Shown: positions 5,455 to 57,701 of the stretch, piece after piece
Layout of the letters: every line of letters starts with the position of its first letter
Numbering within the stretch: the stretch's first letter is position 1
Translations under genes and position numbers: made by a program
Notes under the pieces: model-generated
Database searches by the model: none
What the model was told of the DNA's origin: nothing
The model's input: only the letters and a program-made list of their open reading frames with translations
Assembly: GCA_041649315.1 (NCBI GenBank)
Contig: JBAZNJ010000004.1
Location: 25,060-89,059 of the forward strand
DNA from: Patescibacteria group bacterium
GTDB taxonomy: Bacteria > Patescibacteriota > Patescibacteriia > Patescibacteriales > UBA12465
Length of the DNA: 64,000 bases
Direction: 5' to 3'

Positions 5455-5471
5455 GAATTATTATCTAACTT

Positions 5472-24965: not shown

Positions 24966-25018
24966 TATACATTGTCAATGTATAAAATAAGCAAATAATA
25001 TACACTGCCAATGTATAT
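24966..25018. promoter_or_regulatory. Two related palindromic boxes upstream of the DUF4143 ATPase gene (candidate operator)
   Basis: tatacattgTcaatgtata (24966-24984, perfect 9-bp arms) and atatacactgCcaatgtatat (24998-25018, one mismatch). Their centres are about 33 bp apart, 45-95 bp upstream of the ATG at 25063. Confidence 0.4.
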
Positions 25019-25062
25019 TATTAAAAAGCTGAAAAAATGTCTATTATTTAAAAGTCAAAAAT

Positions 25063-29673: not shown

Positions 29674-29832
29674 GCGGGATAGGAGAGGGATTAGGAGGAA
29701 AGTGCGGAAAAAAATAACCAAAAAAAGAAATAGAATATTTAAATTTGGACATTGGCTTCATTTCCGATTATTATAAAAATTTATAAGAAAAAGAAATGAA
29801 ATATCCAGATCAATCCGCTTAGCTATTTGCCC

Positions 29833-29862
29833 TTGTCCTATTTGTATAAAAAGTGCTATAAT
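29833..29862 (+). promoter_or_regulatory. Putative promoter with extended -10 for tail-fibre-like gene D
   Basis: TTGTCC (29833-29838), an 18-nt spacer, then TGcTATAAT (29854-29862), about 30 nt upstream of ATG 29894. Confidence 0.4.
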
Positions 29863-29893
29863 TTAAATATATTAGTCAACTAAATTTAGCTAT

Positions 29894-34261: not shown

Positions 34262-34289
34262 ACCTCAAACCATTTTTTTAAGGTATTTA

Positions 34290-34320
34290 AAAAGCTATTC
34301 CTAAATAGGAATAGCTTTTT
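34290..34320. terminator. Bidirectional hairpin terminator between convergent genes
   Basis: Stem aagctattcc / ggaatagctt with loop taaata, flanked by an A-run upstream and a T-run downstream. It lies between the stop of 29894..34261 (+) and the stop of 34329..35144 (-). Confidence 0.75.
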
Positions 34321-34328
34321 CGTTTCAT

Positions 34329-35144: not shown

Positions 35145-35171
35145 CTCATATAAATTTTAAAGGTTATTAAA

Positions 35172-35306
35172 TAATTTAATTATCTGTTAAATATCCGGTA
35201 GGTGCCTATTAATTTTTAACGGCATAATCGCTTGTTTTTTAACATTTTTATCGCCGTAACGATTGCTCTCAGAAGAGAACCGGAAACTTAACAGATAATT
35301 AAATTA
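35172..35306. repeat. MITE-like element: 27-bp terminal inverted repeats (25/27 match) enclosing ~81 bp
   Basis: The left arm is taatttaattatctgttaaatatccgg (35172-35198). The right arm is ccggaaacttaacagataattaaatta (35280-35306). Its reverse complement, taatttaattatctgttaagtttccgg, differs from the left arm at 2 positions. The element is intergenic, between divergent genes. Confidence 0.6.
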
Positions 35307-35457
35307 GGCCTTTAAATTGTTTTTTAATGAACTTAATTTTTATAAGAAAATTATATCATATTTATATTTCTTTGTCAAATAATACCTCTTGACGCGATAA
35401 TATATTAATAGTATACTTAAATTAAAGATTTATGATTACTCATTATTACATATCCAT

Positions 35458-36861
35458 ATGATTACTAGGCAAGAATTAAGTTTGAAAAATGAATGGTGGG
35501 TTAATAGCCGATATAAGGTTGAAGAAGCTAAGTTCCCTAAACGCGATTTGTTTGCGATTATTGGAGATAATCTCGAACATCCATTAATGCTTAATATAGT
35601 CGGCCTAAGACGGGTTGGTAAAAGCACCATATTAAGACAGATAATTGGAAAATTACTTGATCTTAAAGTTGAGCCAACTAATATTTTCTATTTCCTTTTT
35701 GATTATTCCAGCCAGATACAAAAACCCGAATTTTTAGATGAAGTTTTATCAGTTTACTTTAAAGAAGTGCTTAATAAGCCGAGCTTGTCTTTGAATGAAA
35801 AAGTTTATGTGTTGTTAGATGAGGTCCAATATATTGAAGATTGGCAATCAATCTTAAAGCGTTACTATGATTTATCAGGTAAGAAAATTAAATTTATAGT
35901 TACTGGATCGCAAAGTATTTTATTAAAGGGGAAATATCGAGAAAGTTTAGCCGGCCGGATTTTTGATTATTATTTGCCGCCGTTGTCATTTAGAGAGTTT
36001 GTTAGAATTAATGATAGTGACGTTAAAATGTTTAAACCATTCGATCTGACAGAGTTGCCCGACGTTTACGGCGAGTTAAGTTCATATAACGCTTATTATG
36101 GTTCAAAAATAACCGAACTAAGCAGAGAATATATAATCACCGGTCAATTCCCGGAAATCAGACAATTGCCGACGCTTGAAAAAAAACAGGAGTATATAGC
36201 CGAGTCAGTGATTGGCAAAGTTATTGATGACTGCATTAGGATCTTTAATATTGAGAAGATTGATGAATTTAAATTAATAGTGAAGCATGTTTTGAATAAT
36301 GTGAGTTCGGTTTTTGAACAAGTAAATGTCGGACGGGAAATCGCCGTATCCCGTTTGACTTTAGATAAATATTTAGAATATTTAAGAAATAGTTATATTT
36401 TTGAGATATTATACAAGTATCATAAGAGTCCGATTAAGCGCGGTCGTATTTTAAAAAAAGTTTATACGCCGTGCATTAATTTCACTTGTGCTTTAAATCA
36501 TTATAAGGAAAGTCATATTGATGAAGTCCCTCAAGCTTTTGGTAAGATAATTGAAAATGTAGTTTACAATACTTTGAATCAAAAATATAAGGGTAGCCAG
36601 ATGGCCGAAGCTTTGAGTTTTTGGCGTCAAGGGGAAAAAGAAATTGATTTTTTACTTAACCAAAATGGAAAGCAATTGCCGATTGAAGTTAAATTTTCGA
36701 ATAACATCAATCCGAAGGATATAGCGCCGACTACTGATTTTATGAAAAAGAAAACGATAAAATACGGGGTTATTGTTACTAGAAGTGAATTGAATAAGAA
36801 GGAAATAAACGGGCAGGTCCTGTATTATATCCCTTATTACCTAATTTTAATGATGATTTAA
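35458..36861 (+). CDS. AAA+ ATPase with DUF4143 domain (second, divergent copy)
   Basis: 467 aa. Walker A GLRRVGKST, Walker B VYVLLDEVQY, then VTGSQSILL...GR. The C-terminus is DUF4143-like and carries EIDFLL. The gene is AT-rich. Confidence 0.75.
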   Translation: MITRQELSLKNEWWVNSRYKVEEAKFPKRDLFAIIGDNLEHPLMLNIVGLRRVGKSTILRQIIGKLLDLKVEPTNIFYFLFDYSSQIQKPEFLDEVLSVYFKEVLNKPSLSLNEKVYVLLDEVQYIEDWQSILKRYYDLSGKKIKFIVTGSQSILLKGKYRESLAGRIFDYYLPPLSFREFVRINDSDVKMFKPFDLTELPDVYGELSSYNAYYGSKITELSREYIITGQFPEIRQLPTLEKKQEYIAESVIGKVIDDCIRIFNIEKIDEFKLIVKHVLNNVSSVFEQVNVGREIAVSRLTLDKYLEYLRNSYIFEILYKYHKSPIKRGRILKKVYTPCINFTCALNHYKESHIDEVPQAFGKIIENVVYNTLNQKYKGSQMAEALSFWRQGEKEIDFLLNQNGKQLPIEVKFSNNINPKDIAPTTDFMKKKTIKYGVIVTRSELNKKEINGQVLYYIPYYLILMMI

Positions 36862-36955
36862 AATAAGAATTATCGATGATTAACGCCCCCTAATTTCTTA
36901 TAGGTTGTAGTCGATAGCTGTATAGTAAGATTATTTATGTCTTAATGCGATCTAT

Positions 36956-36984
36956 TTGCCCCCTATTTTAAAATCTGCTATAAT
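36956..36984 (+). promoter_or_regulatory. Putative promoter with extended -10
   Basis: TTGCCC (36956-36961), a 17-nt spacer, then TGcTATAAT (36976-36984), 30 nt upstream of ATG 37015. Confidence 0.45.
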
Positions 36985-37014
36985 ATCAGCAGATAAATTA
37001 AATAAAAAATCAAT

Positions 37015-43880: not shown

Positions 43881-43967
43881 GGAGAGATGCGAGAGTGGTT
43901 TAATCGGCAGACCTGGAAAGTCTGTGTATTCGCAAGGGTACCGAGGGTTCGAATCCCTCTCTCTCCG
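43881..43967 (+). tRNA. tRNA-Ser (anticodon GGA), class II with long variable arm, no encoded CCA
   Basis: Hand-folded. Acceptor GGAGAGA/TCTCTCC. D stem CGA/TCG. Anticodon stem CAGAC/GTCTG with loop CTGGAAA. An 18-nt variable arm. T stem GAGGG/CCCTC with loop TTCGAAT. Discriminator G. Confidence 0.9.
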
Positions 43968-43994
43968 CAACATCGTGCTAGCACGAGGTAGTTT

Positions 43995-44062: not shown

Positions 44063-44109
44063 TGACAACTTATGTCATTTTTTGACATTTTTATAAAATA
44101 TGTTAAAAT
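44063..44109 (+). promoter_or_regulatory. Promoter with phased TGACA/TGTCA half-sites upstream of the excisionase-type HTH gene
   Basis: Half-sites tgaca (44063-67), tgtca (44073-77) and tgaca (44083-87) sit at exact 10-bp spacing. atgtca-N5-tgacat forms an inverted repeat. The -35 TTGACA (44082-87) is followed by a 16-nt spacer, then TGtTAAAAT (44101-09). Confidence 0.5.
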
Positions 44110-44145: not shown

Positions 44146-44328
44146 ATGAGCGACCGAATAGAAAAACTTTTAACCATAGAGGAAGTAGCTGATATTTTGA
44201 GAGTGAGCACCAGAACTATTGTTAGGTATATAGAATCAGGAAAATTAAAAGCTTCTAAGATAGGTGTTTGGCGAATTAAGGAATCCGATGTTCACCTGTT
44301 TTTAGAGGAAACAAGTAATAAAAAATAA
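44146..44328 (+). CDS. Excisionase-family (MerR-like) HTH DNA-binding protein
   Basis: 60 aa. LLTIEEVADILRVSTRTIVRYIESGKLKASKIGVWRIKESDVHLFLEE is the classic 'DNA binding domain, excisionase family' pattern. Confidence 0.75.
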   Translation: MSDRIEKLLTIEEVADILRVSTRTIVRYIESGKLKASKIGVWRIKESDVHLFLEETSNKK

Positions 44329-44340: not shown

Positions 44341-45915
44341 ATGGCTAATAATTTGAATAATTCTAAAGAACAAGAACGATCAGAGCTCCATCGAGCTATT
44401 TGGCAGATTGCTAATGACTTGCGAGGTAGTGTTGATGGTTGGGATTTTAAGCAGTATGTTCTTGGGATGCTCTTCTATCGTTTTATCAGCGAAAATCTTA
44501 CTAATTACATAAATGCTGATGAGCGCCGAACTGGCAAAAAAGATTTTGATTATGCCGTTATTTCTGACAAAGAAGCAGAATTTGGTCGTGTTGACACGGT
44601 AAAAGAAAAAGGTTTTTATATTTTGCCAAGTGAATTATTTGTAAATGTTTGTAAAAATGCACGTAATAATACAAATCTTAACGAAACTTTAGCCGAAGTA
44701 TTTCGCAATATTGAGAATTCAGCTAAAGGTGTAGATAGTGAAGATGATTTAAAAGGTCTTTTTGATGATATTGATATTAACTCTAAAAAATTAGGTAATA
44801 CTGTAGAACAAAGAAATCAAAAATTAGCCAAACTTTTGGAATCTATTGGTAATCTTCGTCTTGGTAATTATTCTGATAATACTATCGATGCGTTCGGCGA
44901 CGCTTATGAGTTTTTAATGACTATGTACGCCTCAAATGCTGGAAAGTCTGGTGGCGAGTTTTACACTCCTCAAGAAGTTGCCGAGCTTTTGGCAGAAATA
45001 ACTACAGTTGGGAAAAAAGAAGTTAATAAAGTATATGATCCTTGTTGTGGGTCTGGCTCTCTTCTTCTTAAGTTTGCCAAGGTTCTTGGAAAAGAAAATG
45101 TTAGACTTGGTTTTTATGGGCAAGAAATTAATATTACCACTTTCAATCTTTGTCGTATTAACATGTTTTTGCACGATATCAATTATAACCATTTCGATAT
45201 CGAGTTAGGAGACACATTAACTGATCCAAAACATTGGGACGATGAGCCATTTGACGCGATTGTTTCTAATCCCCCTTATTCTATTAATTGGGAAGGTGAT
45301 GCTAATCCGTTATTAATTAATGATCCGCGTTTTTCTCCTGCTGGCGTATTAGCCCCAAAAAGTAAGGCTGATTTAGCATTTATCATGCACATGCTTTCAT
45401 GGCTTTCGACTAGCGGAACAGCTGCAATTGTTGAATTTCCCGGAGTTTTATATCGTGGCGGAGCGGAACAAAAAATTCGTAAATATTTAGTTGATAATAA
45501 TTATATTGATACTGTAATTCAGTTGCCTCCAGATTTATTTTTTGGCGTAACGATTGCTACTTGTATTATTGTTCTTAAAAAAAGCAAGAAAGATAATAAA
45601 ACGTTGTTTATTGATGCTTCAAAAGAATTTGTTAGGGGTGGAAATAAAAATAAGTTAAGTGAAGAAAATCGTCTTAAGATTTTAGACACCTTTACTACTC
45701 GTAAAGATGCAGAATATTTTGCTAAATTAGTTGATAATAAAACCATCGCTGATAATGATTATAATATTGCTGTCTCTAGTTATGTCGTTAGTGAGGATAC
45801 TCGAGAGATAGTTGATGTTATAGAGCTTAATGAAAAAATCTCTAAGATTGTTGTTAGACAAAGTGAATTACGTGCGGCGATTGATAAGATTGTTGAAGAG
45901 ATTGAAAGCAAATAA
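44341..45915 (+). CDS. hsdM: Type I restriction-modification system methyltransferase subunit HsdM
   Basis: 524 aa. The N-terminal HsdM_N region has LWQIANDLRG-like IWQIANDLRGSVD. AdoMet motif VYDPCCGSGSLL and catalytic NPPY (VSNPPYS). Confidence 0.95.
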   Translation: MANNLNNSKEQERSELHRAIWQIANDLRGSVDGWDFKQYVLGMLFYRFISENLTNYINADERRTGKKDFDYAVISDKEAEFGRVDTVKEKGFYILPSELFVNVCKNARNNTNLNETLAEVFRNIENSAKGVDSEDDLKGLFDDIDINSKKLGNTVEQRNQKLAKLLESIGNLRLGNYSDNTIDAFGDAYEFLMTMYASNAGKSGGEFYTPQEVAELLAEITTVGKKEVNKVYDPCCGSGSLLLKFAKVLGKENVRLGFYGQEINITTFNLCRINMFLHDINYNHFDIELGDTLTDPKHWDDEPFDAIVSNPPYSINWEGDANPLLINDPRFSPAGVLAPKSKADLAFIMHMLSWLSTSGTAAIVEFPGVLYRGGAEQKIRKYLVDNNYIDTVIQLPPDLFFGVTIATCIIVLKKSKKDNKTLFIDASKEFVRGGNKNKLSEENRLKILDTFTTRKDAEYFAKLVDNKTIADNDYNIAVSSYVVSEDTREIVDVIELNEKISKIVVRQSELRAAIDKIVEEIESK

Positions 45916-45916: not shown

Positions 45917-46408
45917 ATGGAAAAAGATATTTTATCCATTAAACAGCAAACTAGATTAGCTTTACCAACAGATAATTCATATTTATTTGGATTGGGTGTT
46001 GCCTTGTATGGATTCAACTCTATTAGTAGTTTTATGACTGAAATTATTTGTCATATTGACGATAGTCAAAATAGAACTAGATTATTAGATTTAACATCTG
46101 GAGAAGTTCTGAATATATTTCGGCAAACATTGAAAAATATAAAGTCTAAAAAACAATACAAAAGTATTTATACAATTATGAATGATGTGGCGAATATTTT
46201 CGAAATATTAAATTCAGAACGAACTGATTTTGTTCATGCTTATCCTATTACCAACAGAAGTAATGAGCAGATTTTACATCGCAGAAAGGATGAGAAGGGA
46301 AAATATTTTGAAGTAGACAATAATTTTTTAGATAGCTTTATTTCCCGATTGCATGATGTGAGTAGTGGATTATATAAAATACGTGCAATTGTAAAACCAC
46401 AAATTTAA
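45917..46408 (+). CDS. Small protein embedded between hsdM and hsdS; predicted all-alpha with an Rx4H motif (possible HEPN-like)
   Basis: The track ORF starts at 45830 inside hsdM. The ATG at 45917, 1 nt after the hsdM stop, gives 163 aa. The motif ILNSE-R-TDFV-H-AYP places Arg102 and His107 in Rx4H spacing. No other recognisable motif. Confidence 0.5.
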   Translation: MEKDILSIKQQTRLALPTDNSYLFGLGVALYGFNSISSFMTEIICHIDDSQNRTRLLDLTSGEVLNIFRQTLKNIKSKKQYKSIYTIMNDVANIFEILNSERTDFVHAYPITNRSNEQILHRRKDEKGKYFEVDNNFLDSFISRLHDVSSGLYKIRAIVKPQI

Positions 46409-46412: not shown

Positions 46413-47585
46413 ATGCATATTAATCAATCAAAAATTGAAGGGCTAATATCGGAACTTTGTCCAAAGGGTGTAGAAGTTTTTGGTTTAGGATCTATTTGTA
46501 AAATTGAAACAGGGAGGTTAAATGCCAATGCTGCTGTTGCAGGTGGTGATTATTTATTTTTTACAACCGCTAAAGAAATTAGCAAGATAGATAAATACCG
46601 ATGGGATACGGAAGCGTTACTTGTTGCTGGTAATGCGAATGTCGGTGATGTGAAACATTATATAGGAAAATTTGAAGCATATCAGAGAACTTATGTGTTA
46701 ACAAATTTTTTTAAGAAGATAAATGTTCGTTTTTTATATTTTGTTTTAAAAAATAATTTACAAGAATTTTTAAAAAGCAATTCAAATAGTGCGGCAATGA
46801 CTTATATTGTTTTATCTACGCTTGAAAACTTTAGAATCCCCGTCCCACCCCTCCCAATTCAAGAAGAAATTGTTAAAATTCTTGATAATTTTACAGAGCT
46901 GGAAGTAGAGCTGGAAGCAGAGCTGGAAGCAAGAAAAAATCAGTATGAACATTATAGGAACAAATTATTAACTTTTGGAAATGATATTGAATATAATAAT
47001 TTGGAACATATTTTTAATTTTAAAAATGGTTATACACCCTCAAAAGCAAAATCTAAATATTGGGAAAATGGAGATATACCATGGTTTAGAATGGAAGACA
47101 TAAGGAGTAACGGTAGAATTCTTGATAAATCGATACAATGTGTTAATAGATCTGGAGTAAAAGGAAAGGGTGTTTTTCCTAAAGATTCAATTATTGTAGC
47201 AACATCAGCAACGATTGGAGAGCATGCTTTAATTACTATACCTCATTTAACAAATCAGAGGTTTGTTTCTCTGTCTATAAAAGATGAATTAAAACAAAAA
47301 TTGAATATTAAATTTTTATTTTATTATTTTTTTGTAATAGATGAATGGTGTTTAAAAAATACAACTAAATCAAGCTTTTCGTCAGTAGATATGAATGGTT
47401 TTAGAAAATTTCCAATTCCAATTCCACCTATATCCGAACAAGAACGAATTGTTTCAACCCTTGATAAATTTGATGCGTTAGTAAATGATATTTCAATTGG
47501 TCTGCCAGCTGAACTTAAAGCTCGTCGTCAACAATATGAATATTATAGAAATAAACTTTTAACTTTCAAAGAATATGTCGGTTAA
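46413..47585 (+). CDS. hsdS: Type I R-M specificity subunit HsdS
   Basis: 390 aa. Two target-recognition domains are separated by a conserved coiled-coil helix, ...LEVELEAELEARKNQYEHYRNKLLTF. The C-terminal helix is similar: LPAELKARRQQYEYYRNKLLTF. Confidence 0.9.
   Translation: MHINQSKIEGLISELCPKGVEVFGLGSICKIETGRLNANAAVAGGDYLFFTTAKEISKIDKYRWDTEALLVAGNANVGDVKHYIGKFEAYQRTYVLTNFFKKINVRFLYFVLKNNLQEFLKSNSNSAAMTYIVLSTLENFRIPVPPLPIQEEIVKILDNFTELEVELEAELEARKNQYEHYRNKLLTFGNDIEYNNLEHIFNFKNGYTPSKAKSKYWENGDIPWFRMEDIRSNGRILDKSIQCVNRSGVKGKGVFPKDSIIVATSATIGEHALITIPHLTNQRFVSLSIKDELKQKLNIKFLFYYFFVIDEWCLKNTTKSSFSSVDMNGFRKFPIPIPPISEQERIVSTLDKFDALVNDISIGLPAELKARRQQYEYYRNKLLTFKEYVG
46896..46931 (+). repeat. 12-nt tandem repeat x3 (gagctggaagNa) in the central conserved region of hsdS
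   Basis: gagctggaagta, gagctggaagca, gagctggaagca, encoding ELEV-ELEA-ELEA. Confidence 0.9.
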
Positions 47586-50500
47586 TAATAAATACAATTT
47601 AGTTGCGGAGAGTACGCAGAGCACAGTTGTGGCTGAATATACTCCAAATGGAAAAAGAATCTCTGATTATCAAAGTGAGGCTGAATTAGAGAGTGCTTTT
47701 ATAGAACAGCTAAAAACTCAGGCTTATGAATATGTGGCCATAACCTCTGAGGCTGATTTAGTTTTGAATTTACGTAAGCAATTAGAGAAGTTAAATAATT
47801 TTAATTTTACTGACAGCGAATGGGATAATTTTTTTAATAGTGAAATTTCTAACCCTAATCAAAATATAGAAGATAAAACCGCGACCATTCAGGAAGATCA
47901 TATAAAAAACTTAGTTCGTGAAAATGGTTCAATAAAGAATGTTTATCTTTTAAAGAAGGATAATATTCATGATAATAATCTTCAGATTATTAATCAGTAT
48001 GCCACTGAGGATGGGCAAAGAGCTAATCGTTACGATGTTACAATTCTTGTTAATGGTTTACCTCTAATTCATGTTGAACTTAAACGTCGTGGAGTAGCTA
48101 TTCAGGAAGCCTTTAATCAAATTAATCGTTATCAGAGAGAAAGTTTTTGGGCTTCATCTGGTCTTTTCGAATATGTGCAATTGTTTGTAATTTCAAACGG
48201 CACTCATACAAAATATTATAGCAACACTACAAGATATCAGCATATCAAAGACTCTAATGATGGTGCTTCTAAGAAAGGTAAGCGCACTAGCAGCAGTTTT
48301 GAGTTTACTAGTTGGTGGGCTGATGCTACCAATAAACCAATTACTGATTTAATGGATTTTGCTAAGACATTTTTTTCTAAGCATGCTGTTTTAAATATTT
48401 TGACTAAATATTGCGTTTTTACGACTGACCACTTACTTTTAGTAATGCGTCCCTATCAAATTGTGGCTACTGAAAAGATATTGAATAGAATAGAAATAAG
48501 TACTAATTATAAAAAACTTGGCACCGTTGAGGCAGGTGGATATATTTGGCATACAACTGGCTCTGGAAAAACTTTGACTAGTTTTAAAACTGCTCAATTG
48601 GCTAGTAAATTGCCATATATTGATAAGGTTTTGTTTGTTGTCGATCGTAAGGATTTGGATTATCAGACAATGAAAGAGTATGATAAATTTGCCAAAGGAG
48701 CAGCTAATAGTAATACCAGTACAGCTATTTTAAAAAAGCAATTAGAAGATCCTAATGCTAATATTATTATTACTACTATTCAAAAACTGGATAGATTTAT
48801 TGGAAAAAATAAAGGGCATAATATTTTTGATGGTCATGTAGTTATTATATTTGATGAATGTCATCGATCCCAGTTTGGTGAAATGCATGCGGCTATTACT
48901 AAAGCCTTTAATAATTACCACCTTTTTGGTTTTACCGGTACTCCTATTTTTGCGATTAATTCTTCTTCTGGTGGGCGGATTGATTTTAAGACTACAGAGC
49001 AAGCCTTTGGTGAAAAATTACATGCCTATACTATTGTTAACGCTATTGCTGATAAAAATGTTTTACCATTTAAGGTCGATTATATTTCCACAGTTAAAGA
49101 GGCTGAAAATATTGAGGATAAAAAGGTTAGTGATATTGATCGAGAAGCAATTTTAGCCGCTCCTGAGCGCTTAGAAAATATTGTTCGCTATATTTGTGAA
49201 CACTTTGATCAAAAAACTAAACGCAATAGTTTTTATAAAATAAAAGAGAGAAGGTTGGCTGGATTTAATTCTATTTTTGCCGTTTCCTCTATTGATGTTG
49301 CAAAAAAGTATTATGCTGAATTTAAAAAACAACTTTTAGATTTACCAAGTGATAAGCGTCTTAAAATTGCGATAATTTATAGTTTTGGGGTTAATGATGA
49401 AGATGCCGATGGTTTAGTTGACGAAAATTTAGAGGACACTAGCGGACTAGATCTTAGTTCAAGAGATTTCTTAGAAAATGCGATTATTGATTACAATTCA
49501 ATCTTTGGTACTTCTTATGACACTTCATCTGATAAATTCCAAAATTATTATAAAGATGTCAGCCAAAGAGTAAAGGATAGAGAAGTTGATATTTTGATTG
49601 TAGTTAATATGTTTTTAACTGGCTTTGATGCCACCACTTTAAATACTCTATGGGTTGATAAAAATTTAAGATTGCACGGATTACTACAAGCCTATTCTCG
49701 CACGAATCGTATTTTAAATAGTGTTAAAACTTTTGGTAACATTGTTTGTTTTCGTAATTTAGAGAAAGCTACCAACGAATCAATTTCATTATTTGGTGAT
49801 AAAGAGGCTAGTGGCATTGTTTTGCTTAAATCTTATGCTGAATATTACAATGGCTATAAAGATGGTAATAAAGAAGTTCGAGGATATGTCAGCTTAGTTG
49901 ATGAATTAATGGAGAAATTTCCAGTTAGCGTTAGGATTGACAGCGAACTAGCTCAAAAAGAGTTTATTAAACTTTATAGCAATATTTTGCGTTTACGAAA
50001 TATTTTAACAACTTTTGACGAGTTTTCTAAAGATGAAATTTTTACAGAATATGATATTCAAGATTATCACAGCATGTATATTGATTTGTATAATGAATTT
50101 CGTAAAGCTAAAGAAAGCGAAAAAGAAAATGTTAATGATGATGTCGTGTTTGAAATGGAGCTTATTAAACAGGTCGACATTAATATTGATTATATCTTGG
50201 GATTAATTAAAAAATACCACGAAGATCATACCAAAAATCGAGAAATATTGGTTGATATTAATAAAGCGATTGATGCCAGCGTTGAATTAAGAAATAAAAA
50301 GGATTTGATCAATCAATTTATTTCCTCGCTCGATATTAATTCTGTTGTTGATGCGGACTGGCAGAGTTTTATGAATAAGAAAAAAGTTGAGGAGCTTGAA
50401 CAGATTATTAAAACTGAAGAACTCGATTATGAGGCTACGTATAAGTTTATTAAAAATTCCTTTAGAGATGGTTCAATTGCAGTTTCGGGTACGGCTATAA

Positions 50501-50649
50501 CTAAAGTTTTACCGCCAGTATCTCGATTTTCGCCAGATGGCGAACGAACAAAGAAGCGTGAAACTGTCTTAACAAAATTGACTAGCTTTTTTGAAAGGTT
50601 TTTTGATATTTCTGATGTAAAATTTTTCGACGGTAATCTAAAAAAGTAA
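47575..50649 (+). CDS. hsdR: Type I R-M restriction subunit HsdR (SF2 helicase/translocase + nuclease)
   Basis: 1024 aa. The N-terminal PD-(D/E)xK region reads RYDVTILVNGLPLIHVELKR. Helicase motif I HTTGSGKT, motif II IIFDECHRS and motif VI QAYSRTNR. It overlaps hsdS by 11 nt. Confidence 0.95.
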   Translation: MSVNNKYNLVAESTQSTVVAEYTPNGKRISDYQSEAELESAFIEQLKTQAYEYVAITSEADLVLNLRKQLEKLNNFNFTDSEWDNFFNSEISNPNQNIEDKTATIQEDHIKNLVRENGSIKNVYLLKKDNIHDNNLQIINQYATEDGQRANRYDVTILVNGLPLIHVELKRRGVAIQEAFNQINRYQRESFWASSGLFEYVQLFVISNGTHTKYYSNTTRYQHIKDSNDGASKKGKRTSSSFEFTSWWADATNKPITDLMDFAKTFFSKHAVLNILTKYCVFTTDHLLLVMRPYQIVATEKILNRIEISTNYKKLGTVEAGGYIWHTTGSGKTLTSFKTAQLASKLPYIDKVLFVVDRKDLDYQTMKEYDKFAKGAANSNTSTAILKKQLEDPNANIIITTIQKLDRFIGKNKGHNIFDGHVVIIFDECHRSQFGEMHAAITKAFNNYHLFGFTGTPIFAINSSSGGRIDFKTTEQAFGEKLHAYTIVNAIADKNVLPFKVDYISTVKEAENIEDKKVSDIDREAILAAPERLENIVRYICEHFDQKTKRNSFYKIKERRLAGFNSIFAVSSIDVAKKYYAEFKKQLLDLPSDKRLKIAIIYSFGVNDEDADGLVDENLEDTSGLDLSSRDFLENAIIDYNSIFGTSYDTSSDKFQNYYKDVSQRVKDREVDILIVVNMFLTGFDATTLNTLWVDKNLRLHGLLQAYSRTNRILNSVKTFGNIVCFRNLEKATNESISLFGDKEASGIVLLKSYAEYYNGYKDGNKEVRGYVSLVDELMEKFPVSVRIDSELAQKEFIKLYSNILRLRNILTTFDEFSKDEIFTEYDIQDYHSMYIDLYNEFRKAKESEKENVNDDVVFEMELIKQVDINIDYILGLIKKYHEDHTKNREILVDINKAIDASVELRNKKDLINQFISSLDINSVVDADWQSFMNKKKVEELEQIIKTEELDYEATYKFIKNSFRDGSIAVSGTAITKVLPPVSRFSPDGERTKKRETVLTKLTSFFERFFDISDVKFFDGNLKK

Positions 50650-50653: not shown

Positions 50654-51946
50654 ATGGCCAAGAAAAATGTTAAAGGCGAATATTTATATAAAGAAAATAA
50701 AACTAAAAAAGTATTTTATTTTCGTGATGATTTGCAAAAAATAAATATAATTTCCAGAATCGTTTTTAAAAATAAAAAACACGAAATCCATTATCCTTTT
50801 TCTAAAGACGGAAGACAGAAATATAATTATATTAAAGAAATATCTTATAATGGATTATCAAGTCCTCTTCCTAGAGGATTAATTAAGGACTCAAAATTAG
50901 GATATGGATTTACAAAAGTGCTATCACCTATAATTTATCAGATAGATAGGGTTCTTAAGCCTAATAAATTAGAAGTTTCAAATAATGGCAAAACAAGAAT
51001 AGACAAAAAAACATTATATATCAGTTATGCGGAACTAAATAAGGTGTACCCCAAAATTGATTCATTGCTTCAGCGACATTCAAAAGAAAAAGAGGTGACT
51101 GCACAAAAATTTCTATCCTTATTTTTCCCAAAAAACTTTAAAGATCTTAAAGACACGTATATTAAAGGAACTTTATACTCGATAATCTCTGATCAAGTTA
51201 AAGATGATGTAAAAAAAATATCTAAAGATGACTTTGACTCAATATTGGGGTTAACTTTAAGAGAATTAAAAAATCAAGGAGTAGAATCTAAGAAGGTGGT
51301 GTTGGAAACAAGAGAAAAAATTGAAAGGCGCTTTTTAGAAGACGCGATCATTTATTTTCAAAAACTATCACAAAGAAAACTTGACAATAATAAATTGGAG
51401 AAAGACTGGGAAAAATTTCTTATAGAAAATCCATGGATTATTTCTAATTTATTTGCAACACCCGTGTTCTTTTTTCAGAATCAAGCATACGTTGGCGGGA
51501 AAGAAATAAACAATTCTAATGGAAAGGTTACTGATTTTCTTTATAAAAATGAATTCACTGATAATATTGCTGTTATTGAGCTAAAAACGCATAAGACCAA
51601 TTTATTATCGTCTAAACCATACAGGGGCAAGGACGTCTATTCATTATCAGTAGAGCTTTCGGGCGCAGTTAATCAAGTTTTAAACCAGCGACAGAATTTA
51701 ATTCAAGAGTTTATAAAACTTAGAACTAAAGATGAGTGGTTTGAATCTTATAATCCAAAGTGTCTAGTTATTGCTGGTAGTATTGCTGACTTACCAAAAA
51801 ATGGAGCTAAAACTTTCGATATTTTTAGAAATAGCTTGCAGGGTGTGGAAATAATTACTTTCGATGAGTTACTTAAGAAACTCGAATTTTTTAATGTGTT
51901 AATTAAAGGCGGTAAGAAAAAAAGAGGGCGAGAAAAAAGGTTTTAA
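50654..51946 (+). CDS. Shedu-like protein (C-terminal DUF4263 PD-(D/E)xK nuclease domain, SduA-type) with an unassigned N-terminal region
   Basis: 430 aa. The C-terminal ~180 aa reads EKDWEKFLIENPWIISNLF...KVTDFLYKNEFTDNIAVIELKTHKT...AVNQVLNQRQNL...CLVIAGSIADL...EIITFDELL. This matches the DUF4263 pattern (D...E-x-K, Q-x-x-x-Y-like helix, ...TYDEL). It starts 5 nt after hsdR. Confidence 0.65.
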   Translation: MAKKNVKGEYLYKENKTKKVFYFRDDLQKINIISRIVFKNKKHEIHYPFSKDGRQKYNYIKEISYNGLSSPLPRGLIKDSKLGYGFTKVLSPIIYQIDRVLKPNKLEVSNNGKTRIDKKTLYISYAELNKVYPKIDSLLQRHSKEKEVTAQKFLSLFFPKNFKDLKDTYIKGTLYSIISDQVKDDVKKISKDDFDSILGLTLRELKNQGVESKKVVLETREKIERRFLEDAIIYFQKLSQRKLDNNKLEKDWEKFLIENPWIISNLFATPVFFFQNQAYVGGKEINNSNGKVTDFLYKNEFTDNIAVIELKTHKTNLLSSKPYRGKDVYSLSVELSGAVNQVLNQRQNLIQEFIKLRTKDEWFESYNPKCLVIAGSIADLPKNGAKTFDIFRNSLQGVEIITFDELLKKLEFFNVLIKGGKKKRGREKRF

Positions 51947-51981: not shown

Positions 51982-52194
51982 ATGAAAAAATATAAAATTT
52001 ATTTTGATAGAGACGGTATTGAGCCAGCGGAAATTGTAATTACCGGGGAAGGTAATAATTGTCGAGTTGGCGCTGTAAGAGTGCAACATGAAACCATCTT
52101 TTTTAATTGCCAAGGAACTCTTGAAAATATATTAAAAAAAATTAGTGATAAACTAGGAAAATATGGTATTAAAAAAATAGAACCTATAATATAG
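51982..52194 (+). CDS. Small hypothetical protein (70 aa)
   Basis: The ORF lies between the Shedu-like gene and the PD-(D/E)xK/DUF5655 gene on the same strand. No recognisable motif. Confidence 0.4.
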   Translation: MKKYKIYFDRDGIEPAEIVITGEGNNCRVGAVRVQHETIFFNCQGTLENILKKISDKLGKYGIKKIEPII

Positions 52195-52218: not shown

Positions 52219-53136
52219 ATGCCACTTTTTAAACAGGATAGTAATAAATTATCCATCATTCAAGAAAAAAATATTGATCTAGAAAAAACAGTTCAAAAAT
52301 TAACTGAAAGTAATTTGGATAATATTTTTAGTTTGGAATTTGTTAGCACTGAATTTGCTTTGCATAACTTTAGAATTGACACCTTAGCCTTTGATCAAGA
52401 AAATAATTCTTTTGTTATTATAGAGTATAAAAGAGATCGAAGTTTCAGTGTTATTGATCAGGGTTATGCTTATTTGGCTTTAATGCTTAATAATAAGGCA
52501 GATTTTATTTTAGAATATAATGAGAAAACAAAGAATAGTCTAAAGAGGGACGATGTTGATTGGTCGCAGTCTAAGGTTATTTTTGTGGCAAATTCCTTTA
52601 CGTCTTATCAGATGAATGCGATTAATTTTAAAGATTTGCCGATAGAGCTTTGGGAAGTGAAAATGTATGATAATGATGTAGTTTTATATAACCAGTTATT
52701 ATCTCAAGACTCTAAAGAATCAATAAAAACTATTACTAAAAATAAAACTATAAATAAGGTAAGTAGCGAAGTTAAGGTGTATACGCTAGAGGATCATCTT
52801 AGCATTCCAGAAGATATAAAAAACCTATTTTTTGCTTTAAGAGAAAAAATTTTATCGCTTAGTGATTCCGTGGAAGAAAGACCTAAACAAAATTATGTGG
52901 CCTATCGATTAAAGAATGCTTTTGCCTATGTTCATAATCAACAGTCAAAAATAAAAATTCATTTGGAAATAAGAAAAAAAGATTTGGACGATCCAAAAAA
53001 TATGGCTAGAAATGTTGAAGGAATTGGACATCATGGCGGAGGAGAGACTGAGGTTATTTTAAATAGGTCTGAAGATTTAAATTACGTTTTTCTGCTAATA
53101 GAACAGGCTTATAATAGGATATCTAAAAAATCTTAA
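52219..53136 (+). CDS. PD-(D/E)xK nuclease-like N-terminal domain + DUF5655-like C-terminal domain protein
   Basis: 305 aa. FRIDTLAFDQENNSFVIIEYKRD...IDQG fits a D...E-x-K...Q nuclease core. The C-terminal ERPKQNYVAYRLKNAFAYVHNQQSKIKIHLEI resembles DUF5655. Its stop codon overlaps the stop of the convergent recombinase gene. Confidence 0.55.
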   Translation: MPLFKQDSNKLSIIQEKNIDLEKTVQKLTESNLDNIFSLEFVSTEFALHNFRIDTLAFDQENNSFVIIEYKRDRSFSVIDQGYAYLALMLNNKADFILEYNEKTKNSLKRDDVDWSQSKVIFVANSFTSYQMNAINFKDLPIELWEVKMYDNDVVLYNQLLSQDSKESIKTITKNKTINKVSSEVKVYTLEDHLSIPEDIKNLFFALREKILSLSDSVEERPKQNYVAYRLKNAFAYVHNQQSKIKIHLEIRKKDLDDPKNMARNVEGIGHHGGGETEVILNRSEDLNYVFLLIEQAYNRISKKS

Positions 53137-54416
53137 TTAATTAGAACAGTTTTATTTTGAAGTAGTATTTTCCCGTTTAAACACGTAAGTAATTCTCGTT
53201 TCTCTTGATCATCACCCTCCTGTAGTAAAAACTTGATATAATTTTTAACATCGACGTCGCTCACGTCGATGTTTTGATTTTTGCCAGTCGCCATTATTTG
53301 AAATTTCTTAAATCTTTTTATTTCTCCTTCAATTTTATCTTGAACTGGTAACTTCTTGAAATCTAATTTCTCAACCTGCTTTTGTAATTGTTTTATTAAG
53401 TCTTCTTCGCTGATATAACCCGACTTACAATTTTTATCTTTTGCTTTGGTACAGCCATAATAAATATGACGGTTAAAACCTCCATTTTTTAATTTCTTAA
53501 ATTTTTCTGTTGCTGATATTCCTGAACCACATAAACCACAGGTCATAATTTTGGTAAAAGCGAATTCAATATTTTCTCGTCTAACTAATTGGGAATTCTT
53601 CATTTGATCTTGAACTAAATCAAATAATTCCTTGGTTATCAGTGGCTCGTGTTTGCCTTGATACCAATTACCACTGCCTCGGGGATATTCAAAGGGGCCA
53701 TAGTAGAAAGTATTTTCAAGAAGACGGTAGATATTTCCTAAACTTAAATGCTTTTTTCCTAGCGCGGTTCTAAAATTTAAATCAAATCGTAACCAATTAT
53801 AAATCTTTCGGCCTGACCATTTTTCATAAGCGACTTTTTCAAACATCTGTCTGATAACGTGGCCCCTGTCTGGGTCGATCAAACATTGTCCCTTATGATC
53901 AACTTGTTTTTCTTTAAAGTAACCAGTCGGCGGGCAAGTCGGCCATAAACCTTTTTCACATCTAGCTCTTAAACCTCTTTTGACGTTTATGCCACGATTA
54001 TCATTTTCGAGTTTTGCTTGAGAACATAGAATCATGAGCAGAAACTTTTCGTTTGGAGAATTACTAAATGTTTGGCCAAAGGTGCGAATACTCATTAATT
54101 TCTTCTCATCCATTAAATCAACTAAGGATCCTAAGTCACCAGCATTTCTTGAAAGTCTATCAGGTGCCCAGGTTAAAATAGCGTTAAATTTCTCTTCAGC
54201 TATGTCTTTTAATAACTCCTTAAAGATGGGGCGATTGCCAGAATCTTTGGCGGACTTTGATTCTCGTCTAATATCAACGATTTCCAAATTTTCTCTTTCA
54301 GCAATTTGAAGCATTTCCTTAACCTGTGAATCGATTGATTGGACTTGTCGCTCGTCTGATTCAGTACTCTTTCTAGCATAAAGACAGTATTTTAGCTCAG
54401 TTTCTAATGGAGGCAT
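53133..54416 (-). CDS. Large serine recombinase (resolvase domain + recombinase domain + zinc ribbon)
   Basis: 427 aa. The N-terminal CLYARKSTESDERQVQSIDSQ carries the catalytic Ser motif, followed by DRLSRN. The C-terminal Zn ribbon is CGLCGSGISA...YYGC. Confidence 0.85.
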   Translation of the reverse strand: MPPLETELKYCLYARKSTESDERQVQSIDSQVKEMLQIAERENLEIVDIRRESKSAKDSGNRPIFKELLKDIAEEKFNAILTWAPDRLSRNAGDLGSLVDLMDEKKLMSIRTFGQTFSNSPNEKFLLMILCSQAKLENDNRGINVKRGLRARCEKGLWPTCPPTGYFKEKQVDHKGQCLIDPDRGHVIRQMFEKVAYEKWSGRKIYNWLRFDLNFRTALGKKHLSLGNIYRLLENTFYYGPFEYPRGSGNWYQGKHEPLITKELFDLVQDQMKNSQLVRRENIEFAFTKIMTCGLCGSGISATEKFKKLKNGGFNRHIYYGCTKAKDKNCKSGYISEEDLIKQLQKQVEKLDFKKLPVQDKIEGEIKRFKKFQIMATGKNQNIDVSDVDVKNYIKFLLQEGDDQEKRELLTCLNGKILLQNKTVLIN

Positions 54417-54540: not shown

Positions 54541-56013
54541 TTACCAATATAAGGTATAAACTCTTGGTGGATTAGGGCGTTTATCCAGTAAACTGTGGGC
54601 CAAATTAACAAAAGCATCAGCTAGATCATCATGTTTTTCAACTCCAAAATGAACTATTTGTTGGATTAACTCTTCAGCCCCTTTTCTTGGAAATAGTATT
54701 TGCCCGTTTTTAATCATATTAGCTGTCAGAACAAGTCGGGTGCGTTTATCTTGGCTTCCTGGGTGTGTAGTCATGACATTGCCAATCCCCTCAACTTTTA
54801 ACTGTTGAGGAAGAGCTTTTTGATAAGCGACATCTTCCACGACCAACCTGACGAGATCATAATCCTTTTTATAACTCTCATACATAACCTTGCAGGTATC
54901 GATGGTTTCGGGGAAGTTAAGCCGTCTATTGATTATCTTCGGCAGAATATAAATTTTGTATCCTGTTTTCGTTTCAAATAGTAACCCAGGCACCATGGCT
55001 GTATAATCAGCGACGGAACTTTGAGAGATAGCAGGATCAATACCGATTCTAACTTCAAGATGTGATTTATATCCGCCGTACATATCCATTCTTTCTGGAA
55101 TCTCATCATAATAATTAATCCATTCAGGGTAAATAGCTTGGTCATCACTGGGAACAATATTTAACAGATATTCTTGTTGCCAAGTAATCTCATTGCCAAC
55201 TTTTTTCCGCTCGGCTTCAATATCTTTATCGGTTGGGTATTTACCAGGCCACAAGCAAATACCTTTTTTATTGATTAACGGGTAGAAAAGGAAATTGCCA
55301 TCAATAATTTCTTTTTCCTTTTCTTCTTTTAATCTCATAAGCAAAGAATCTTCATGTAAGAGGTTTCCCACTATAACCAGTCTTGTGTCCTTATCGCCAG
55401 CAGGAATAACCTCGCTCTTAAGCCATTGATAGGTTTTATTGCGGCCATCTCTGGTTTTGGTTGAGCTAATATCTTCCACATCATCGCAAATAATCAAATC
55501 AGGCCGATTTTCGTAATGTCTAATACCTCTAATACTTTGATCAACAGAAGCGACGGTAATTCTGGCATCAGTATTTGAAAAGACAATTGATTGAGCGCCC
55601 CATTCATCGCTATTTTCTCGAAATGGGCCCAAGTCTTTTTTAAGTAGGTCATTATCTTCTAATTCTCGGCGCAGATTCATCATGTGTTGTTTAGCTTGCG
55701 CTTGGGTTTGACAGAAAATAACGACAAACTTCTTTTGCTGTTTGCCGAGTATCGCCCAAATCGGATAAGCGGCGGTAATAATAGTTGATTTGCCTGATCC
55801 TCTAAAAGCCACCACAAACAAATTTTCTTTGTGACTGGATTCAATTAAAGAAATTATGTTTTTCTGAAAATCCGCTGTTTCATATTTAACATAATGGGCG
55901 TAGTAGAAGTGAAAGAAATAAGAAAAACTTTCCCTAGTTATCGCCGTTCTTATTTTCTTGTCCTGGGTCATTTGCTCCACCATTTCTTGTGGAATCATCT
56001 TGTTTACTATCAT
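54541..56013 (-). CDS. terL: Phage terminase large subunit (TerL)
   Basis: 490 aa. Walker A AFRGSGKST and a Walker B-like LIICDDVED. The C-terminal RNaseH-like nuclease region has an acidic residue pattern (VVEDVAYQ..., HDDLADAF). Confidence 0.8.
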   Translation of the reverse strand: MIVNKMIPQEMVEQMTQDKKIRTAITRESFSYFFHFYYAHYVKYETADFQKNIISLIESSHKENLFVVAFRGSGKSTIITAAYPIWAILGKQQKKFVVIFCQTQAQAKQHMMNLRRELEDNDLLKKDLGPFRENSDEWGAQSIVFSNTDARITVASVDQSIRGIRHYENRPDLIICDDVEDISSTKTRDGRNKTYQWLKSEVIPAGDKDTRLVIVGNLLHEDSLLMRLKEEKEKEIIDGNFLFYPLINKKGICLWPGKYPTDKDIEAERKKVGNEITWQQEYLLNIVPSDDQAIYPEWINYYDEIPERMDMYGGYKSHLEVRIGIDPAISQSSVADYTAMVPGLLFETKTGYKIYILPKIINRRLNFPETIDTCKVMYESYKKDYDLVRLVVEDVAYQKALPQQLKVEGIGNVMTTHPGSQDKRTRLVLTANMIKNGQILFPRKGAEELIQQIVHFGVEKHDDLADAFVNLAHSLLDKRPNPPRVYTLYW

Positions 56014-56428
56014 ATGTGTTTGTATTATTAATTATTAATTGCTCATCGGCTGGTAATAGTTTTGCCAGTTTCAAAGCATGTTTTACTACTTCTGCTTGAG
56101 CAGGAGTTAGTTCGTCGGTATCTTCCGTTTTGGAAGTTACCTCAATCTTATCTTTAAACCTCGGATTGCGATGTCTAAGCCAAAAGCTGATCGCTGACCA
56201 ATTCTTTTCTTTAATCATTGTTAAGAGTTGGCTTTCGCTCATGTCGTTTACTAGAGCCTCACCTTCGGCTAAGGCCTCATCCATTACTTTCGAGAATTTT
56301 TTGTCCTCTCGTTTCCAGCGATAAATGCTGTTACGAGATACACCTGATTTTTCACAGGCGACTAAAACGATAGGCACTTTCTTAAGCTCGTTAAAGAAAG
56401 CTTCTTGTAATCGGCTTTTCTTAGACAT
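55934..56428 (-). CDS. Terminase small subunit-like HTH protein
   Basis: 164 aa. N-terminal HTH (VACEKSGVSRNSIYRWKREDKKF). It sits immediately upstream of terL and overlaps it by 80 nt if both annotated starts are used. Confidence 0.55.
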   Translation of the reverse strand: MSKKSRLQEAFFNELKKVPIVLVACEKSGVSRNSIYRWKREDKKFSKVMDEALAEGEALVNDMSESQLLTMIKEKNWSAISFWLRHRNPRFKDKIEVTSKTEDTDELTPAQAEVVKHALKLAKLLPADEQLIINNTNTYDSKQDDSTRNGGANDPGQENKNGDN

Positions 56429-57701
56429 GCTCCACCACCTCCTTTCTGCCTGTTAATTTTCGATATCTTGCTATCGCCAAATCACAGAAAATTGGCTCAA
56501 GTTCTATCGCATAAACTTTCCTTTTTAATTGCTCACCAGCAATAATGGTGCTGGCTGATCCCGAGAAAGAATCAAGAATAATATCTCCAGGCTTAGTACA
56601 GCGCCTTATAGCCTTTTCGTAGAGCTTTGGGGGCTTACTGGTGGCATGTTCGTAATCTTTACCTGAAATACGCTTGGTAAGCCAAATATCTAAAGAATCA
56701 TAGATATCTTCAAACATTTCATTACCAGTACCAAGCTCTTTGTTTAATACCTCGTTATAGTTTTTAATATCAGAATTGATATATGGCTTGCCTTTAACCC
56801 CATAAACGGCAGGTTCATAACACTTATTGAAAGCAATTTTAGGAGTAGGGTTTTGTGAATTTTTAAGCCACAAACAAACTCGCTTATTTATTATTCCTAG
56901 TTCTCGATATAACTCTTGAAATAAGCCGATATATGTTTGGTCGCACCAGTAAAATACATGGCAGTCATTTTTAGTGTTCGGCAAAGCGGCTAAAAGAGAA
57001 TTCTTAATAAACTGCTTATATTCTTCATAACTTCTATTGTCATTAACCGTTCCGCCATAATCATTTTTACCGCCAATGCCTTTGGAATAGTCTAATTTAA
57101 TGTTATAGACTGGATCAGAAAATATCATTGAGGCCCTGTCATTACCAAATAATCTTTTTAGGTTATCGGGGTTGGTAGAATCGCCACAAAGTAGGCGATG
57201 TTCGCCTAAATGTATTAGGTCACCTGGTTTAGTTTTTGGTGTCTTTATCTTTTTTAACTCTGCCTCAACATCAAAGTCCTCATCTTTTACTTCTAATTCT
57301 TTATCCCAGAAATAAGATAAATCGACTTGATCAAAACCAATATCAACTAAGAGGTCTAGGTCAAATGTCTTTAACTTTTCAAAATCCCAATCACCACCTA
57401 AAGCGTTGCTGGAAATAAGATATCTTTTAGTCTCATCTTCGGTTAGTTGACGATTAGGGATCCTAACATCAATTAGCTCCTCACCTCTGCCAAGGATTTG
57501 AAGGGCCTTAACTCGCTGGTGGCCGGCCAAAATTTTGCCAGTTAAGTCGATGGCTGGAATTTCGACTAAATTAAATTTAGCCAAACTTTTCTTAAGATCA
57601 GACATTTGTTTATCACTGATCTTTCTAGGGTTAACATCTTGGGGAACAAGATCGTTAACTCTTTTTTGCACTGTGTGCCATTGGAGTTTTTCTGCTTTCA
57701 T
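56421..57701 (-). CDS. ParB-like nuclease domain fused to an N4/N6 DNA methyltransferase
   Basis: 426 aa. The N-terminus has a ParB-like NPRKISDKQMSDLKKSL...GHQRVKAL. The methyltransferase motif IV variant is SDPVYN. The C-terminal AdoMet motif is ILDSFSGSASTIIAG. Confidence 0.8.
   Translation of the reverse strand: MKAEKLQWHTVQKRVNDLVPQDVNPRKISDKQMSDLKKSLAKFNLVEIPAIDLTGKILAGHQRVKALQILGRGEELIDVRIPNRQLTEDETKRYLISSNALGGDWDFEKLKTFDLDLLVDIGFDQVDLSYFWDKELEVKDEDFDVEAELKKIKTPKTKPGDLIHLGEHRLLCGDSTNPDNLKRLFGNDRASMIFSDPVYNIKLDYSKGIGGKNDYGGTVNDNRSYEEYKQFIKNSLLAALPNTKNDCHVFYWCDQTYIGLFQELYRELGIINKRVCLWLKNSQNPTPKIAFNKCYEPAVYGVKGKPYINSDIKNYNEVLNKELGTGNEMFEDIYDSLDIWLTKRISGKDYEHATSKPPKLYEKAIRRCTKPGDIILDSFSGSASTIIAGEQLKRKVYAIELEPIFCDLAIARYRKLTGRKEVVEHV

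Follow-up and report, generated by a model that had tools for sequence, protein, structure and literature searches.

A predicted active long-form Shedu nuclease with a catalogued type of N-terminal domain in the defence cargo of a Patescibacteria prophage-like element

Long-form (Type 1) Shedu proteins share a general layout in which an N-terminal domain is joined through a helical linker to a nuclease domain (Gu et al. bioRxiv 10.1101/2023.08.10.552793; Loeff et al. bioRxiv 10.1101/2023.08.10.552762), and the N-terminal regions of 5,401 such proteins have been sorted into 79 clusters and eight classes (Gu et al. bioRxiv 10.1101/2023.08.10.552793). Two described members serve as points of reference here, namely the SduA protein of B. 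cereus B4264 (Type 1A; Protein Data Bank, PDB, entries 8TI8, 8TI9 and 8TIA) and that of E. coli KTE10 (8PS4, 8PS5 and 8PS6). The closest catalogued subfamily to the protein we consider is the one captured by the PADLOC model PDLC00384 (and by PDLC00380), whose members have the same three-part architecture as our protein. An example is WP_004883043.1, a 469-amino-acid "Shedu immune nuclease family protein" that E. coli, Citrobacter, Klebsiella and Salmonella carry on conjugative plasmids of the IncHI1A/IncP types; it matches PDLC00384 end to end (E = 7.5e-182), and its relatives occur in Pseudomonas, Xanthomonas, Burkholderia and Caulobacter. Here we analyse a stretch of 64,000 nucleotides (hereafter the window, to which all coordinates refer) from a Patescibacteria genome (assembly GCA_041649315.1, contig JBAZNJ010000004.1, positions 25,060 to 89,059), in which a single open reading frame (ORF) at 50654..51946 on the forward strand, with an ATG start, encodes a protein of 430 amino acids. 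We are highly confident that the product of this gene, sduA, is a long-form Type 1 Shedu protein, catalytically intact by prediction, which has an N-terminal domain of an already catalogued type and is defence cargo on a prophage. The gene and the parts of its product are as follows.

50654..51946, + strand: sduA, long-form (Type 1) Shedu immune nuclease, 430 amino acids (ORF, Pfam SduA_C, PADLOC SduA, identical NCBI protein)
50654..50809, + strand: residues 1-52, N-terminal four-stranded beta-meander, specific to the subfamily (strands 7-14, 18-25, 30-38 and 43-46 in the AlphaFold2 model, with a predicted local distance difference test score, pLDDT, above 90)
50810..51118, + strand: residues 53-155, conserved core of the N-terminal domain, which is presumed to be the sensor (AlphaFold2 model, conservation, hhalign)
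51119..51388, + strand: residues 156-245, helical linker from the N-terminal domain to the nuclease (AlphaFold2 helices 173-182, 191-205 and 210-239, of lower confidence)
51389..51907, + strand: residues 246-418, DUF4263/SduA_C nuclease domain of the PD-(D/E)xK type (Pfam, phmmer, Foldseek, alignment; codons checked)
51908..51943, + strand: residues 419-430, short basic tail GGKKKRGREKRF, predicted to be disordered (pLDDT below 50 at 420-430; not conserved in the consensus of the alignment)

On the evidence of its sequence, sduA is a genuine and intact Shedu gene that public databases already annotate as such. Its product matches Pfam SduA_C (PF14082, formerly DUF4263) at residues 247-407 with E = 7.3e-23 and 81.9 bits, against a curated cut-off of 27 bits, and positions 2-159 of the 159-position model are aligned; the search with this hidden Markov model that the first-pass annotation had proposed as a check thus returned a significant match spanning the whole domain. 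Fourteen PADLOC SduA models match the protein (best PDLC00384, E = 9.4e-77), a phmmer search of the PDB found B. cereus SduA (8TI8/8TI9; E = 3e-31 for 8TI8), and a Foldseek comparison of the AlphaFold2 model with chains B and C of 8TI9 gave E = 2-3e-12, a template-modelling (TM) score, target-normalized, of 0.79-0.80 and a root-mean-square deviation of 3.3-3.7 Å. These four lines of evidence agree in supporting the earlier assignment of the protein to the Shedu/DUF4263 nucleases, with the catalytic D...E-x-K arrangement. The nuclease domain is also matched by PHROG 38147 (E = 1e-34). A protein database search returned 296 clusters at E ≤ 1e-3; because these include a 100% identical protein, listed at NCBI as "Shedu immune nuclease family protein" and derived from a Patescibacteria metagenome-assembled genome (MAG), together with full-length relatives at 37-81% identity, the ORF stands far beyond what chance would produce. 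The motif strings that had been quoted from the translation are all present, with ENPW at residues 258-261, VTDFLYKNEFTDNIAVIELKTHK at 292-314, GAVNQVLNQRQNLIQE at 337-352, EIITFDELLK at 399-408 and YFRDDLQKINIISRIVFKNKKHEIHYPF at 22-49, and the N-terminus is lysine-rich as had been noted (16.7% lysine in the N-terminal 245 residues).

To place the active site we combined the phmmer residue alignment to 8TI8 with the motif list of Gu et al., allowing for an offset of +2 in the PDB numbering. The following positions were obtained, all within the nuclease domain.

51398-51400, + strand: E249, motif I, aligned to B. cereus E204
Residues 281-283, + strand: G281-G282-K283, the GGK loop, aligned to B. 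cereus K238
51533-51535, + strand: D294, motif II, aligned to B. cereus D249
51578-51586, + strand: E309 and K311, motif III, aligned to B. cereus E264 and K266
51674-51676, + strand: Q341, motif IV, aligned to B. cereus Q295

In an alignment of 44 homologues at 36-81% identity, E249, D294, E309, K311 and Q341 are all invariant and the GGK loop is conserved, and on this ground we predict that the nuclease is active. Two of the B. cereus counterparts, D249 and E264, have been found experimentally to be required for defence (Gu et al. bioRxiv 10.1101/2023.08.10.552793). The nuclease of B. cereus SduA is ~45% identical to that of the window protein over 177 aligned residues, keeps motifs I-IV and the GGK loop, and stands in the same order of domains, after an N-terminal domain and a helical linker. 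The stretch at residues 271-300 that holds the GGK loop was modelled with a pLDDT of only ~50, a feature reminiscent of B. cereus Shedu, in which activity is gated by a mobile loop at motif II.

The region upstream of the nuclease had been described as an unassigned N-terminal segment of ~250 residues. Its lack of an assignment holds for Pfam and NCBIfam, no model of which falls on residues 1-246, but does not hold for PADLOC, whose model PDLC00384 covers residues 67-420. A single HxlR match in the Pfam/NCBIfam searches was dismissed as chance (E = 0.012; 15.9 bits against a cut-off of 20.8). Nor is the segment one domain. In the AlphaFold2 models, which were built with the 44-sequence alignment, residues 1-155 form a compact, globular, basic domain of ~155 residues and are followed by a helical linker of ~90 residues (helices within 173-239) and by the nuclease at 246-418, the layout of a long-form, Type 1 Shedu. 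Because a Foldseek search of the PDB with the full-length model was dominated by the nuclease, residues 1-160 were modelled and searched alone. This model, which reached a pLDDT of 94.7, comprises four strands between residues 7 and 46, strands at 62-66 and 76-86, a helix at 91-101, three strands between 105 and 124 and a long helix at 125-155, so that the topology of the core (residues 53-155) is beta-beta-alpha-beta-beta-beta-long alpha. The core carries the motif KY...LPxGxxK....GYGF, and across the subfamily, in the 44-homologue alignment, P48, G75, G83 and G85 are invariant and H46, K56, Y57, L72, P73, K78 and F86 nearly so; in the linker, D193 is invariant. Residues 1-160 are strongly basic (isoelectric point 9.95, net charge about +20), and it is plausible from this composition that the putative sensor domain binds nucleic acid.

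The first-pass annotation had taken this N-terminal region to be new, and some observations favour reading it as a novel sensor domain that would mark a separate Shedu subtype. In addition to lacking a Pfam or NCBIfam model, the confidently modelled domain found no significant Foldseek match in the PDB (best E = 0.78) or BFVD (best E = 0.54); the top matches (ODP sensor, Acb4 and cystatin-like) were rejected as noise, with TM scores below 0.3. Sequence and profile searches of the PDB reached B. cereus SduA through the nuclease alone and missed E. coli SduA, and residues 1-52 cannot be aligned to the nearest catalogued subtype. Against this reading stands first the PADLOC SduA model PDLC00384 itself, which dates from 2023 and aligns residues 67-420, starting at query residue 67 and model position 109. 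Consistent with this match, BLASTP aligned the window protein to WP_004883043.1 over residues 67-410 (31% identity, E = 3e-44), and a profile-profile comparison of the window family with the PDLC00384-type family gave a probability of 100% and E = 4e-65, with the alignment beginning at residue 41. When hhalign was rerun on alignments cut back to exclude the nuclease and its contribution to the score, the N-terminal domain alone was still matched (96.8%, E = 2.3e-10, residues 53-147 against 78-190), as was the linker alone (97%, E = 8e-11). Homology to the PDLC00384-type family was thus found through both linker and N-terminal domain, whereas the extreme N-terminus (model positions 1-108) was left unaligned, and we therefore regard the window protein as belonging to a sister group that shares the core rather than as a straightforward member of that family.

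The region is also far from rare. More than 100 of the listed relatives cover 92-100% of the length of the sduA product at 36-81% identity, named full-length examples being proteins of Kangiella, Aquaticitalea, Seonamhaeicola, Mucilaginibacter and Marivirga, and a scan of one genome per species found relatives of the same architecture encoded in at least 223 species genomes, from Bacteroidota, the candidate phyla radiation (CPR), Proteobacteria, Acidobacteria, Spirochaetia, Cyanobacteria and several archaea. Many of these relatives, like the identical protein, are already called Shedu in NCBI and UniRef, and the 79 families into which Type 1 N-terminal regions had already been clustered mostly have no PDB homologues (Gu et al. 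bioRxiv 10.1101/2023.08.10.552793). Falling into a described Shedu subtype is what had been named as the outcome that would speak against novelty, and this is what we find at the level of the PADLOC and NCBI catalogues. The reading of a new sensor domain and new subtype is already largely refuted, and we consider it very unlikely. In particular, from about residue 53 onwards the N-terminal region is, as judged by these profile alignments, homologous to that of the large catalogued subtype PDLC00384, and only the first ~50 residues, the four-stranded beta-meander, are lineage-specific. We also considered whether the domain is a portable module borne by other effectors and rejected the idea. An exhaustive phmmer search with residues 1-160 found the domain in 72 clusters at 50% identity, the complete proteins of which are all ~412-443 residues long with the domain at the N-terminus, and the shorter matches are fragments with no other Pfam domain. 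Because only Shedu-length proteins or such bare fragments carry it, the domain is specific to Shedu.

The two families that share this core differ in several ways. Both have the LPxGxxK....G.G and KY motifs, but the ~77 residues that precede the core in PDLC00384-type proteins have no detectable counterpart to the first ~52 residues of the window protein, the window family is ~40 residues shorter, and it occurs mainly in Bacteroidota and CPR, whereas the PDLC00384-type is proteobacterial. In E. coli plasmid pECO-109b (NZ_CP026208.1, 80877-86332), a Shedu gene of the sister subtype, of the IncHI-plasmid kind, lies just downstream of a RelB/DinJ antitoxin gene and is followed by two genes whose annotations, AAA ATPase and ATP-dependent helicase, suggest a Gabija-like pair.

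Among the structurally described Shedu proteins, none has an N-terminal domain that we could equate with the one here. The N-terminal 240 residues of B. cereus SduA have no sequence or profile similarity to the window protein, and the sPC4/Whirly fold that marks Type 1A (beta-beta-beta-beta-alpha; B. cereus SduA residues 1-117) is not seen in our model, which had no Foldseek match of the sPC4, Whirly or MRP type. E. coli SduA has the same long architecture (N-terminal domain, alpha-helical linker and C-terminal DUF4263 domain), and its N-terminal domain, like the one here, is without structural homologues outside Shedu. It went undetected by the window-family profile, even in the nuclease, and 8PS4 was reached only by way of the plasmid Shedu (E = 1e-7). 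The N-terminal model gave no Foldseek match to the DNA-end clamp of E. coli SduA (8PS6, EcSduA residues 1-145), and the end-stacking Trp25 of that protein has no evident equivalent, the subfamily consensus over residues 1-160 containing no Trp. A likeness of description was found with Type 1B (the NRF1 fold), the second-largest class, which comprises 1,594 instances, E. coli PD-T4-8 included, and which has a core of beta1-beta2-alpha1-beta3-beta4-beta5-alpha2, a positively charged surface or basic cavity, and no PDB homologue (Gu et al. bioRxiv 10.1101/2023.08.10.552793). Residues 62-155 of the window protein, compared with this fold by description only, are predicted to have the same order of elements, are basic, and have no PDB match; the window protein differs in its additional four-stranded N-terminal sheet. 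On this match of descriptions we put membership of the shared core in NRF1 (Type 1B) at an even chance.

How such a protein might work can be sketched by analogy with the published B. cereus and E. coli Shedu proteins. The window Shedu would form a homotetramer through its nuclease domains, and its N-terminal domain and linker would keep the nuclease auto-inhibited. The basic N-terminal domain would bind a nucleic-acid structure associated with infection, most plausibly free DNA ends or single-stranded DNA, and the nuclease, once released, would cut invading DNA without killing the host.

Several points weigh against our reading of the protein, or against parts of it. Tetramerisation, auto-inhibition and the activating ligand are all borrowed from the published proteins by inference. 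An hhalign comparison of residues 1-66 with residues 1-107 of the PDLC00384-type family aligned only 12 columns at 31.7% probability, which is not significant. Y315, a residue of the octamer interface of B. cereus SduA, lies in an insertion that is absent from the window protein, and because this segment is missing we have not adopted the octamer-activation model, which may not transfer. Since the N-terminal domain matches neither E. coli SduA nor sPC4/Whirly, the DNA-end clamp mechanism cannot be transferred by homology either. The entries 8PS4, 8PS5 and 8PS6 were absent from the PDB matches of the N-terminal model in Foldseek, 8PS4 being in the PDB sequence set and its presence in the Foldseek library not having been shown. 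Lastly, relatives of sduA at 54-56% identity adjoin GmrSD, EcoRI-type methylase or TIR genes and not Type I restriction-modification (R-M) genes, from which it follows that the linkage to hsdR described below is not obligatory.

By itself the locus adds one more annotated Shedu to the defence cargo of a Patescibacteria prophage and, as it stands, matters little. The interest lies in the class, since the family of this N-terminal domain and its sister in Proteobacteria, borne on IncHI plasmids that are common in the clinic, have a confidently predicted fold with no solved relative, and they mark a large Shedu class that is of interest for its mode of sensing. For experiments, the E. coli plasmid homologue would offer a far easier entry than the CPR gene.

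The gene immediately upstream of sduA is hsdR, the last gene of a Type I R-M operon, the components of which are listed here; conservation was assessed by tblastn at the loci of the closest sduA relatives (L006-L010; 76-81% identity).

44146-44328, + strand: helix-turn-helix (HTH) protein, HTH_17 (ORF, Pfam HTH_17)
44341-45915, + strand: hsdM (ORF; conserved in L006-L010)
45917-46408, + strand: 163-amino-acid ORF between hsdM and hsdS, with its ATG just after the hsdM stop
46413-47585, + strand: hsdS (ORF; conserved in L006-L010)
47575..50649, + strand: hsdR, Type I R subunit, 1024 amino acids (six Type I R-subunit Pfam domains; PADLOC REase_I, 1160 bits)

The Pfam domains of hsdR include HSDR_N, SWI2_SNF2, ResIII, T1R_D3-like and EcoR124_C. 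As read from the junction sequence, only 4 nt separate its stop codon from the ATG of sduA, and no terminator-like site was found between the HTH gene (44146) and the end of the PDC-S18 gene (53136) that lies beyond sduA; the best sigma-70-like site of the region, at 44082-44109, is upstream of the HTH gene. The two genes being co-oriented, 4 nt apart and without a terminator-like site between them, the operon-like link of sduA to hsdR that had been proposed at first is borne out. The closest relatives keep the order hsdM-hsdS-hsdR-sduA, with a gap of 3 nt between hsdR and sduA. Where the contig reaches that far (L006), the HTH gene precedes the cassette, and the genes downstream differ among L006-L010. 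The 163-amino-acid ORF has no Pfam, NCBIfam, PHROG or PADLOC assignment, and only sub-threshold matches to dUTPase_2 and PD-T4-9_A. At the same position L009 has a different gene, of 194 amino acids, and L006 has none; gene content between hsdM and hsdS thus seems to vary among these Type I operons.

Linkage to Type I genes is seen among relatives of at least 72% identity and among ~14-19% of the distant members of the family. Among 80 genome loci of greater distance, hsdM and hsdR were both detected within 7 kb of sduA in at least 11, and in such Type I loci sduA is often placed between hsdM/hsdS and hsdR. Since the HsdR proteins encoded there are only 23-43% identical to HsdR of the window, sduA appears to have become associated with Type I systems repeatedly and independently. 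Such an arrangement, with sduA inside the operon between hsdM/hsdS and hsdR, was observed at nine of the loci examined, the hosts being Kangiella, Balneolales, Seonamhaeicola, Flavobacteriaceae, Methanosarcinales, Pacearchaeota, Saccharibacteria and Parcubacteria; at one of these (L085), ~6 nt separate the sduA stop from the hsdR start. The idea that Type I linkage is universal in the family was rejected, as no Type I genes were detected within 7 kb at ~65 of the 80 loci. More generally, 602 of 5,499 Shedu genes have been placed inside R-M systems, Type I included (Gu et al. bioRxiv 10.1101/2023.08.10.552793).

These arrangements raise the possibility that SduA is a functional accessory of the Type I enzyme, the two acting in series such that HsdR makes linear ends and the N-terminal domain of Shedu senses them. 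The conserved spacing of the two genes (4 nt in the window, 3 nt in L006-L010) would fit this, as would the recurrence of the family inside unrelated Type I operons of several phyla, and E. coli SduA does recognise free double-stranded DNA ends. However, most of the distant loci have no Type I genes nearby, and the relatives at 54-56% identity sit beside other kinds of genes instead; Shedu proteins function as single genes when transplanted; the N-terminal domain here is unlike the end-binding clamp of E. coli SduA; and defence genes also come to lie together without cooperating physically. We accordingly rate the accessory role as unlikely. That Shedu acts on the linear ends made by Type I restriction is, in its own right, an attractive but unsupported idea in which we place little credence, and it is just as doubtful that the ~50-residue beta-meander retunes sensing and that, in addition, the hsdR-sduA junction reflects a two-step mechanism in which Shedu is triggered by ends or translocation intermediates made by HsdR. 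The tight linkage of hsdR and sduA most likely reflects the co-expression of complementary defences. Nonetheless, the recurrent placement of sduA in Type I R-M operons provides a concrete and testable case for cooperation between restriction and Shedu.

Both the R-M operon and sduA lie within a segment of low G+C content that begins at about position 44,000, where G+C drops from ~45% to ~30% immediately after a tRNA gene. That gene and the genes downstream of sduA are as follows.

43881..43968, + strand: tRNA-Ser(GGA), likely the integration site of the element (ARAGORN; composition profile)
51982-52194, + strand: 70-amino-acid ORF with no match in any library
52219-53136, + strand: PDC-S18/DUF5655 candidate defence protein (PADLOC PDC-S18, E = 1.8e-116; Pfam DUF5655, E = 2e-12)
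53133-54416, - strand: large serine recombinase (Pfam Resolvase/Recombinase/Zn_ribbon_recom)
54541-56013, - strand: large terminase (Pfam Terminase_6C/6N)
55934-56428, - strand: HTH protein (ORF)
56421-57701, - strand: N6/N4 DNA methylase (Pfam N6_N4_Mtase)

This low-G+C segment of the Patescibacteria (CPR) genome is prophage-like and includes a region of defence cargo. Its likely integration site is the tRNA-Ser(GGA) gene. A search for an attachment-site duplication, as direct repeats of the 3' end of tRNA-Ser within 43800-64000, yielded only short A+T-rich chance repeats, and the element is likely to continue outside the window. The same backbone was found in a Paceibacterota MAG (L004/L013), with 88%, 82% and 92% amino acid identity in the methylase, terminase and recombinase, respectively; its cargo is different and includes a 56%-identical sduA without Type I genes. 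This pairing of one backbone with differing defence cargo suggests that the end near the recombinase is a cargo hotspot in CPR phages of this family.

The location of sduA on an element with terminase and serine recombinase genes would also suit a reading in which the nuclease serves the prophage itself, through degradation of host or competitor DNA or in replication or recombination, and not immunity, and PHROG 38147, the family that matches its nuclease domain, is a phage family of unknown function. This reading is countered by the immediate surroundings of the gene, which is flanked by the Type I R-M genes and the PDC-S18 candidate in a typical defence-cargo region, by the occurrence of relatives in chromosomal defence islands, a non-phage context, and by the fact that both characterised Shedu proteins are defence nucleases. 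Moreover, the 121 Shedu genes reported in prophages were interpreted as serving defence or superinfection exclusion (Gu et al. bioRxiv 10.1101/2023.08.10.552793). A role in the service of the prophage thus seems to us extremely improbable, and a role as defence cargo remains the reading we prefer.

Some further features of the window were recorded. The PDC-S18 protein is matched over nearly its full length, with DUF5655 in its C-terminal part and weak NucS/HSDR_N-like signals towards the N-terminus, and at one distant locus (L087) a 45%-identical homologue (5279-6163) lies directly upstream of sduA. Three tandem copies of a 24-nt unit, TTTCTTCGAAAGAGATTGATGGAG, occupy 59200-59282, inside an ORF of 939 amino acids (58620-61439, + strand) for which Pfam and PHROG gave no match. 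Further patches of low G+C content (30-35%), at 25001-26000, 29001-30000 and 34001-37000, interrupt the part of the window that is otherwise of ~45% G+C, and may have been horizontally acquired.

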